Shown here: one piece after another, positions 61-167 of the stretch
Layout of the letters: each line of letters opens with the position of its first letter
How positions within the stretch are numbered: the stretch's first letter is position 1
DNA from: Shigella phage vB_SHGBLB0004
Sequence record: PV654518
Length of the DNA: 11,151 nucleotides
Reading direction: 5' to 3' (one strand)
Translations under genes and position numbers: made by a program
Notes under the pieces: model-generated
Database searches by the model: none
What the model saw: only the letters and a program-made list of their open reading frames with translations
What the model was told of the DNA's origin: nothing

Positions 61-72
61 GTATTCACAAAC

Positions 73-88
73 TAGTACACTAGTACAC
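73..88 (+). repeat. Tandem 8-bp direct repeat (tagtacac x2) abutting a TTGACA box
   Basis: tagtacac at 73-80 and 81-88, preceded by ac (71-72), immediately followed by TTGACA at 89-94. Confidence 0.6.
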
Positions 89-119
89 TTGACAAATATA
101 AATAACCATTGACTTATAT
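89..119 (+). promoter_or_regulatory. Candidate left-end promoter for the plus-strand ORFs
   Basis: TTGACA at 89-94 with AT-rich -10 candidates around 112-119 (ACTTAT/TTATAT); a second TTGACT at 109-114 lies 20 bp downstream. The -10 match is weak, so this is tentative. Confidence 0.3.
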
Positions 120-167
120 CTATCTATGTTATACCATCTAATTACACTAACAAATGAGGATAATAAA

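Follow-up and report, generated by a model that had tools for sequence, protein, structure and literature searches.

Positions 61-167 of the window (the whole 11,151-bp stretch of DNA that was analysed) probably form the control region of the left early operon, in which a sigma70 promoter would be combined with an O2-type site bound by the phage HTH protein and, upstream, with a copy of an element of the inverted terminal repeat (ITR). The new points are that the left site consists of an O2-type half-site and the -10 hexamer, that the tandem repeat beside the promoter is an ITR-element copy, and that the first TTGACA box is no credible separate promoter. We infer the HTH binding, the direction of regulation and the function of the ITR-element copy from the sequences compared below.

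The window is a near-complete linear genome of an Astrithrvirus-like podovirus with a 60-nt perfect ITR. Domains detected were DNA_pol_B_2, Podovirus_Gp16, Phage_connector and Phi29_MCP, and the minus strand, read from the right end, encodes a protein-primed B-family polymerase, a gp16-type ATPase, a phi29-type connector, the MCP and a CHAP lysin. The assignment to the Astrithrvirus-like phages is based on the size (~11-12 kb), the ITRs, the B-family polymerase, the phi29-type capsid, connector and ATPase, and the conserved synteny. The nearest isolates by polymerase (the Salmonella phages astrithr and Astrid, Acinetobacter phage Phanie, Pectobacterium phage DU_PP_III, Enterobacter phage Entb_47 and Vibrio phage K58 g2; 48-52% identity) have an identical gene order; Phanie is a satellite that borrows the tail of a helper phage (PMC11476376). 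Searches of the window or its left kilobase with megablast and blastn gave no nucleotide match to phages, plasmids or E. coli genomes, which together with the polymerase identities places the window outside the named genus by nucleotide similarity.

Relatives were collected in searches that used the HTH protein and the product of the first left-end gene as queries, and ~125 further family contigs were added from a capsid-protein profile. Close strains are L016/L017 (94% identical) and L032/L033 (97-99%); L018 and L030 represent one genotype about 74-80% identical to the window, and the L001 group, L025, L026 and L401 are more distant. Between the window and L018, the non-coding stretch 61-167 is 83% identical, compared with 74% genome-wide and 81% for the polymerase gene, which suggests constraint. 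The features to which the text refers are as follows (coordinates, strand, description).

1-60, plus strand: inner part of the ITR (60-nt perfect repeat), containing a TTGACA box at 30-35 followed by TGTGATAGG.
61-88, plus strand: internal copy of the sub-terminal ITR element, with TGTATT at 62-67, N8, AGTACA at 74-79 and a second AGTACA at 82-87.
89-94, plus strand: distal -35-like box TTGACA; the core -35 follows 20 bp downstream (spacing kept in L018).
95-108, plus strand: A/T-rich tract AATATAAATAACCA, at about -53 to -40; A/T-rich in L018 too.
109-114, plus strand: -35 hexamer TTGACT of the putative left-operon promoter (promoter scan match 109-137).
118-134, plus strand: operator-like site ATCTA-TCTATGT-TATAC (O2-type), with its left half in the spacer and its right half in the -10.
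127-137, plus strand: -10 region, TGT plus TATACC at 130-135 (15-nt spacer) or TACCAT at 132-137 (17-nt spacer).
156-170, plus strand: start of the first left-operon gene (96 aa; homologues begin MIQLF) at ATG168, preceded by the ribosome-binding site GAGGA (156-160).
168-978, plus strand: left operon, encoding a 96-aa acidic protein (168-458), a 50-aa protein (472-624) and a 101-aa protein (673-978).
998-1018, both strands: intrinsic terminator, bidirectional, that separates the convergent operons of the two ends (9-bp stem, T run on both strands).
10773-11015, minus strand: 80-aa Xre-type HTH protein, first gene of the right operon and presumed regulator.
11071-11089, minus strand: putative right-end operator O1, a 9+1+9 perfect palindrome TATCTATTG-a-CAATAGATA (plus strand TATCTATTG-t-CAATAGATA).

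The sequence-only reading had described the left end as an early promoter region with two TTGAC boxes 20 bp apart, and this description stood. TTGACA lies at 89-94 and TTGACT at 109-114, their 20-bp spacing is also kept in L018, the promoter scan reported a match at 109-137, and the hexamers of that match are conserved in relatives. TTGACT followed by 17 nt and TACCAT agrees with the sigma70 consensus at 9 of 12 positions (scan) with a sigma70-type spacing, and TGT-TATACC (127-135) forms an overlapping extended -10; TATACC lacks the key final T, and the alternative TACCAT matches at only 4 of 6 positions. A -35 and a -10 are conserved in every relative found (L016/17, L018, the L001 group, L025 and L026): the equivalent -35 hexamers in L018, the L001 group, L025 and L026 are TTGACT, TTGCAA or TTGAAA, followed after 15-16 nt by TATACT or TATGCT, and TATAC[T/C] is conserved in five lineages. 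Promoter-like sites are at chance level genome-wide (45 observed, 41 expected), so that the scan alone is weak evidence. TTGACW is likewise not enriched genome-wide (15 observed vs 15.4 expected), and five of the 15 copies are no further than ~125 nt from one or the other end, all facing inward. We take 109-137 as a probable sigma70-type promoter of the left operon that host polymerase would use, with a transcription start predicted near 142-145. The tract at 95-108 occupies the position of an UP element, a label that we infer from this position.

Downstream of the promoter, the longest open reading frame (126-458, 110 aa) begins at ATG126, which is probably a mis-start; ATG126 is absent in L018. 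The 101-aa protein is found family-wide (33 family loci by tblastn). A phi29 p5-like ssDNA-binding protein is listed for this phage group (PMC11476376), and the 101-aa protein may be that protein; its single-sequence AlphaFold2 model was unusable (pLDDT 47), and PHROGs and PDB sequence searches with the three left-operon proteins were uninformative. Compared with the 94%-identical L016, the lysin gene (1023-1478) is 71.5% and the 101-aa gene (673-978) 87% identical, against 96-98% for the polymerase, ATPase, capsid and tail genes, 91% for the portal and 99% for the first two left-operon genes; the low values of the lysin and 101-aa genes point to mosaic exchange around the convergent terminator.

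The second component of the region is the operator-like motif. As the sequence-only reading had noticed, TATCTATCTATG occupies 117-128 and contains ATCTAT, and the right end carries a palindrome that it had taken for an operator. This palindrome is centred on the minus-strand -35 TTGACA (11083-11078), with a -10 TAATAT at 11059-11054, and it is perfect in L030 (~80% identical) while its flanks diverge. In L033/L032 it carries one substitution (CAGTAGATA for CAATAGATA). The proposed sharing of ATCTAT between the ends held in that the longer pattern given below occurs in the window only at the two end promoters; the left site is no perfect palindrome like that of the right end and has one good half-site. 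Its partner TATAC shares three of five bases with TAGAT and coincides with the -10 hexamer, and the O2-type site spans the spacer and the -10, not the -35. TATCTAT occurs eight times in the window (2.8 expected), and four of the eight copies are in the two end regions. The pattern ATCTA-N7-TAKAH (TA[G/T]A[A/C/T]), which was defined after inspecting these sequences, is found in the window only at 118-134 and 11072-11088 (3 matches vs 0.38 expected), and 1 of 200 shuffles contained three matches or more.

Relatives extend this distribution, the pattern being nearly confined to their terminal promoters. Every genome-wide ATCTA-N7-TAKAH match in L018, L001, L026, L401 and S.Kent is at a terminal promoter, and the left ATCTA site holds the same register to the -10 in L018-L, L001-L, L001-R and L025-L. 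Throughout the family, a TCTA-N7-TAGA dyad is centred on the -35 of the HTH gene promoter (e.g. TCTATTGACATTAGA); 18 of its 29 family occurrences are ≤400 nt from contig ends, and the strict dyad precedes 9 of 20 distinct HTH genes (~0.07 expected). Promoters with two sites, O1 and O2, 15-16 bp apart, in which the right half of the second site is the -10, were found in L001-R (ATCTAACAGTGTTATAC), L401-R (ATCTAACTGTAATAGAA) and S.Kent-R (ATCTATCTAAGGTAGAA), and a complete ATCTA-N7-TAGAT dyad is present at the left promoter of L026. In DU_PP_III, L037, L040 and K58 g2 the promoter lies wholly within the ITR, so that, with promoter and operator both inside the ITR of several relatives, the control regions of the two operons are identical there. 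The motif was present ≤400 nt from an end in 23 of 32 HTH-bearing and 1 of 71 HTH-less genomes, counts that are not phylogenetically independent and that were corrected by reassigning 11 left-end loci (L016-L026) whose contigs end before the HTH gene; the Fisher test on the raw counts of motif against HTH gene presence gave p = 1.5e-4. Because the motif is at both end promoters and tracks with the HTH gene, the idea that one HTH regulator may act at both ends is supported by comparison.

The presumed regulator has no Pfam match in the window, and among 16 relatives weak HTH_3/HTH_19 matches were obtained (best E 0.0016-0.03) that stayed short of the curated threshold. A PDB profile search returned ClgR, SinR and DdrO at E 0.09-1. 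The family has at least 586 members, with invariant residues in a ...SAFE.GRS.N... segment. The AlphaFold2 model of the protein (pLDDT 95) has five helices, and the top Foldseek matches in the PDB are all Xre-type HTH proteins (ClgR, C.BclI, HipB, Rgg and Aca2; probability 0.8-0.93, TM 0.5-0.6, with weak E-values of 0.7-3).

The third component lies upstream of the promoter. The tandem octamer that had been counted among the promoter elements is present, with TAGTACAC at 73-80 and 81-88 inside an array at 71-89 (period 8, 2.4 copies, 100% matches) that is the window's top-scoring tandem repeat (TRF). An exact 8+8 duplication arises in 16% of shuffles, so that the repeat is notable only in context; for the full 19-nt periodic run we roughly estimate a chance probability below ~0.01. 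The context is an internal, left-end-only copy of the sub-terminal ITR element known from L033, L018 and K58 g2, and this identity replaces the promoter-element interpretation. Window positions 61-87 (GTATTCACAAACTAGTACACTAGTACA) match the L033 sub-terminal element at 22 of 27 positions, a score reached by none of 2000 dinucleotide shuffles; within L018 the left-end internal copy likewise matches the ITR element of that genome, and the right end has no copy of it.

In relatives, the sub-terminal element is a dyad TGTACT-N8-AGTACA followed 8 bp on by a second, usually degenerate, AGTACA unit, and it is located about 27-47 nt from the true termini. The K58 g2 ITR reads TGTACT-ACCTGACT-AGTACAtgAGTACAc with the same dyad-plus-tandem architecture, which indicates that the arrangement is ancestral and not a local slip. 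The 9-mer CTAGTACAC has 19 matches in 1.6 Mb of family DNA (both strands), 18 of which are at genome ends and face inward; end-located copies were found in L033, L018, the L001 group, L025, L401 and DU_PP_III, and the only copies outside an ITR are those of the window type and the L018 type. Relative to the L001 and L026 groups, 61-108 resembles a clade-specific insertion between the ITR and the core promoter, composed of the element copy, a second TTGACA box and the A/T-rich tract and starting exactly at the inner ITR boundary; the copy is carried by these two lineages only (window type and L018 type). At a guess, the sub-terminal element is a candidate site for an origin protein.

Several other readings were set aside. 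The first left-operon product, gp1 (96 aa), is strongly acidic, and K58 g2 has the element without a gp1 homologue, so that gp1 was rejected as the repeat-binding protein. CRP-like (TGTGA-N12-TCACA) and LexA-like (no CTGT-N8-ACAG) dyads were dismissed by eye for wrong spacing. Viral and metagenome collections, when scanned for ACTAGTACACN{0,30}TTGACA, gave, among the matches listed, chance matches only. A sub-terminal sequence of L033 outside the window, CTAATCGGGG-TCGTACT-CCCCAACTAG (~28-54), could form a hairpin as a single strand; the internal copy at 61-88 has neither its G run nor its C run and is unable to fold in this way.

The position of these elements depends on where the genome ends. 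L033, L032 and L018 extend ~60-64 nt beyond window position 1, L033 reading GGGGGGTCTAATCGGGGTCGTACTCCCCAACTAGTACACTGATACATAACTCGGGTGATAGTAA|CACACCGG, and the outward extension in near-identical and related contigs has the form GGGGGG...GTACTCCCCAACTAGTACAC... (L033 1-84, L018 1-60). The true ITR is thus at least ~124 nt long; some 64 terminal nt are probably missing from either end of the deposited sequence, and position 60/61 is the true inner ITR boundary. ITR length ranges across the family from 60 to >300 nt. Nextera or Illumina adapter sequence was seen at contig ends of L001, L019, L021 and L401, and the apparent 122-nt perfect ITR of L001 includes adapter; the L032/L033 contig ends carry GTTTCCCAGTCACGATA, presumably a random-amplification primer.

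Two further motifs of family ITRs were recorded. A box TTGACA-N12/13-TGnTAG(G/C), with a perfect -35 and a TG motif and a poor -10, is found in the window at 30-58 (plus strand) and 11122-11094 (minus strand), with a third copy at 10967-10939 (minus strand) within the HTH gene; it is also present in the ITRs of Phanie, Entb_47 and L030, and in family DNA 15 copies face inward near ends vs 4 elsewhere. Distant relatives that lack the HTH gene (L057, L067, L079, L082, L087, L094, L104 and similar loci) carry a sigma54-type consensus, TGGCAC-N5-TTGCW, in their ITRs (91 inward-facing matches ≤350 nt from ends vs 10 elsewhere), and an ITR motif of these relatives has an internal copy ~1.7 kb in, near position 1730.

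Other explanations of the region were weighed against this evidence. That 61-167 holds a plain constitutive early promoter, in which ATCTA and TATAC are common to both ends by descent from one ITR-borne promoter and the HTH protein acts only at the right-end palindrome, is rather unlikely in our judgement. Family ITRs do expand and contract, and since the ITR spans the whole promoter in the four relatives named above and the imperfect ITR of L001 extends through it, the left and right promoters are homologous; moreover, the window's left site is without an inverted partner, and because it has one good half and its TATAC is the -10, ATATCTA could be a feature of the promoter spacer that goes back to an ancestral promoter carried in the ITR. 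However, ATATCTA stands in one register to the -10 across five diverged lineages whose neighbouring spacer bases vary, the full dyad stands at the left promoter of L026, and conservation of the non-coding stretch 61-167 equals that of the best-conserved genes. Two tandem sigma70 promoters, with the distal TTGACA at 89-94 driving a second upstream start and hence two early transcripts, are improbable: the box is a perfect consensus -35 whose spacing persists in L018, K58 g2 too has two TTGACA boxes (18 bp apart) and tandem early promoters are common in phages, but each of the candidate -10 hexamers at 16-19 bp (GACTTA, ACTTAT, CTTATA and TTATAT) lacks the A of position 2, the T of position 6 or both, and the promoter scan did not report a distal promoter. 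Without an acceptable -10 at this distance, two tandem promoters are unsupported. The distal box is absent at the equivalent position in the L001 and L026 groups. A promoter formed by TATAAA (97-102) and a -35 inside the repeat was also rejected (at best 3 of 6 positions in the -35).

For the upstream segment, it is possible, at somewhat less than even chance, that 61-108 (the tandem repeat and the first TTGACA) is a functionless scar of an ITR rearrangement, for example by template switching or recombination in which terminal sequence was copied to an inner position. The exact start at the inner ITR boundary, the absence of the segment from the L001 and L026 groups despite promoters that can otherwise be aligned, the variable ITR length in the family and the restriction to two lineages all fit such an origin. 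A scar would have had to be kept in two lineages ~74-80% identical with its core CAAACTAGTACAC unchanged, although the 13-nt conserved core of the copy is, taken alone, within expectation for 80% identity; the window's second unit is a perfect AGTACA repeat in a tandem arrangement also seen in the distant K58 g2 ITR, and conservation of the region exceeds the genome-wide mean. The idea that the left end encodes a small structured RNA analogous to the phi29 prohead RNA can be given hardly any credence. It has in its favour the left-end position, as for phi29 prohead RNA, the phi29-type packaging ATPase and connector, and a weak leftward promoter-like site at 122-95. Against it, Rfam gave no match at E ≤ 1, folding was not more stable than that of shuffles (a 152-nt transcript read leftward gave z = -1.3, the leader in the rightward direction +0.6), and the non-coding space is too small.

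Under the preferred reading of 61-167 as a regulated promoter region, host sigma70 RNA polymerase would use TTGACT at 109-114 together with the -10 at 130-137, initiate at ~142-145, transcribe the three small genes and terminate at 998-1018. The 80-aa HTH protein would most likely bind both 118-134 and the 19-bp palindrome at the right end; there it would repress its own operon, and at the left end it would occlude the -10, so that the left operon would be shut down or throttled. Positions 61-88 may be a binding site for the protein, of phage or host, that recognises this element where it lies close to the replication origins, and a protein bound there could modulate early transcription or mark the left end. 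More specifically, the element might be an auxiliary origin site whose left copy lets the phage origin-binding protein control early transcription or marks the left end (e.g. for polar packaging), a proposal that we consider unlikely to be correct in this form.

The window shares with the Astrithrvirus-like phages the succession, on one strand, of a small HTH gene, terminal protein, B-family polymerase, gp16-type ATPase, connector, capsid, tail and lysin genes, small genes grouped in a short, convergent operon at the opposite end, the ITRs, and inward-facing TTGACA promoters with TCTA-N7-TAGA dyads at the ends. Unlike them, the window clade has the extra copy of the sub-terminal element at its left end, and its ITR does not reach the promoters, so that left and right ends have diverged. 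Like the Xre/Cro/C-protein autoregulators of phages and restriction-modification systems (lambda Cro at OR, the controller proteins C.BclI and C.AhdI, and the anti-CRISPR-associated Aca2), the small HTH gene is first in the operon that it would control, putative operators, dyad or dyad-like, overlap the -35 and -10, with two adjacent sites 15-16 bp apart in relatives, and the fold matches C.BclI, HipB, ClgR and Aca2. It differs in that sequence similarity here is below family thresholds, in its half-sites ATCTA-N7-TAGAT, and in that the putative regulator would act at opposite ends of a linear genome.

Auxiliary origin elements offer another comparison. Adenovirus ITRs have auxiliary origin sites for NFI and Oct-1 at ~19-50 bp, and phi29 p6 has nucleation sites near the genome ends; the conserved dyad and repeat ~27-47 nt from the termini inside the ITR resemble these, whereas the extra non-terminal copy here occurs at one end only and abuts a promoter. 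To our knowledge, a non-terminal ITR-element copy at one end abutting a promoter has no described counterpart. With phi29 the window shares the protein-primed podovirus type, the predicted use of the host sigma-A/sigma70 polymerase, putative regulator sites that overlap early promoters, and a probable link of terminal regions with transcription control (PMC11476376). The phi29 early/late switch employs p4 with p6 at A2b, A2c and A3, and p6 represses C2 near the right end; the p4 DNA-binding motif is an "N-hook" (PMC11476376), in contrast to the Xre-type HTH here. The promoters here are at the genome ends, whereas those of phi29 are central. No p4 or p6 homologue was detected in the window, and no pRNA gene was found in it (Rfam, E ≤ 1).

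For the phi29-like miniature phages that infect Gram-negative hosts, we found in the literature no promoter or operator analysis. An early phage promoter combined with the operator of an autoregulator, as proposed here, would be of a known type, and an ITR-element copy at one end only would be modestly unusual. If the proposed role of this copy is true, it would link replication-origin occupancy to gene expression in a protein-primed linear genome and give a molecular basis for left/right asymmetry. For the whole group, the analysis provides a testable regulatory map of inward-facing sigma70 promoters at or inside the ITRs, to which it adds a family-wide candidate operator, TCTA-N7-TAGA, tied to a conserved 70-80-aa HTH protein, and a conserved sub-terminal repeat element as a candidate origin-auxiliary site. 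Known principles would thereby be extended to an unstudied phage group, and none overturned.
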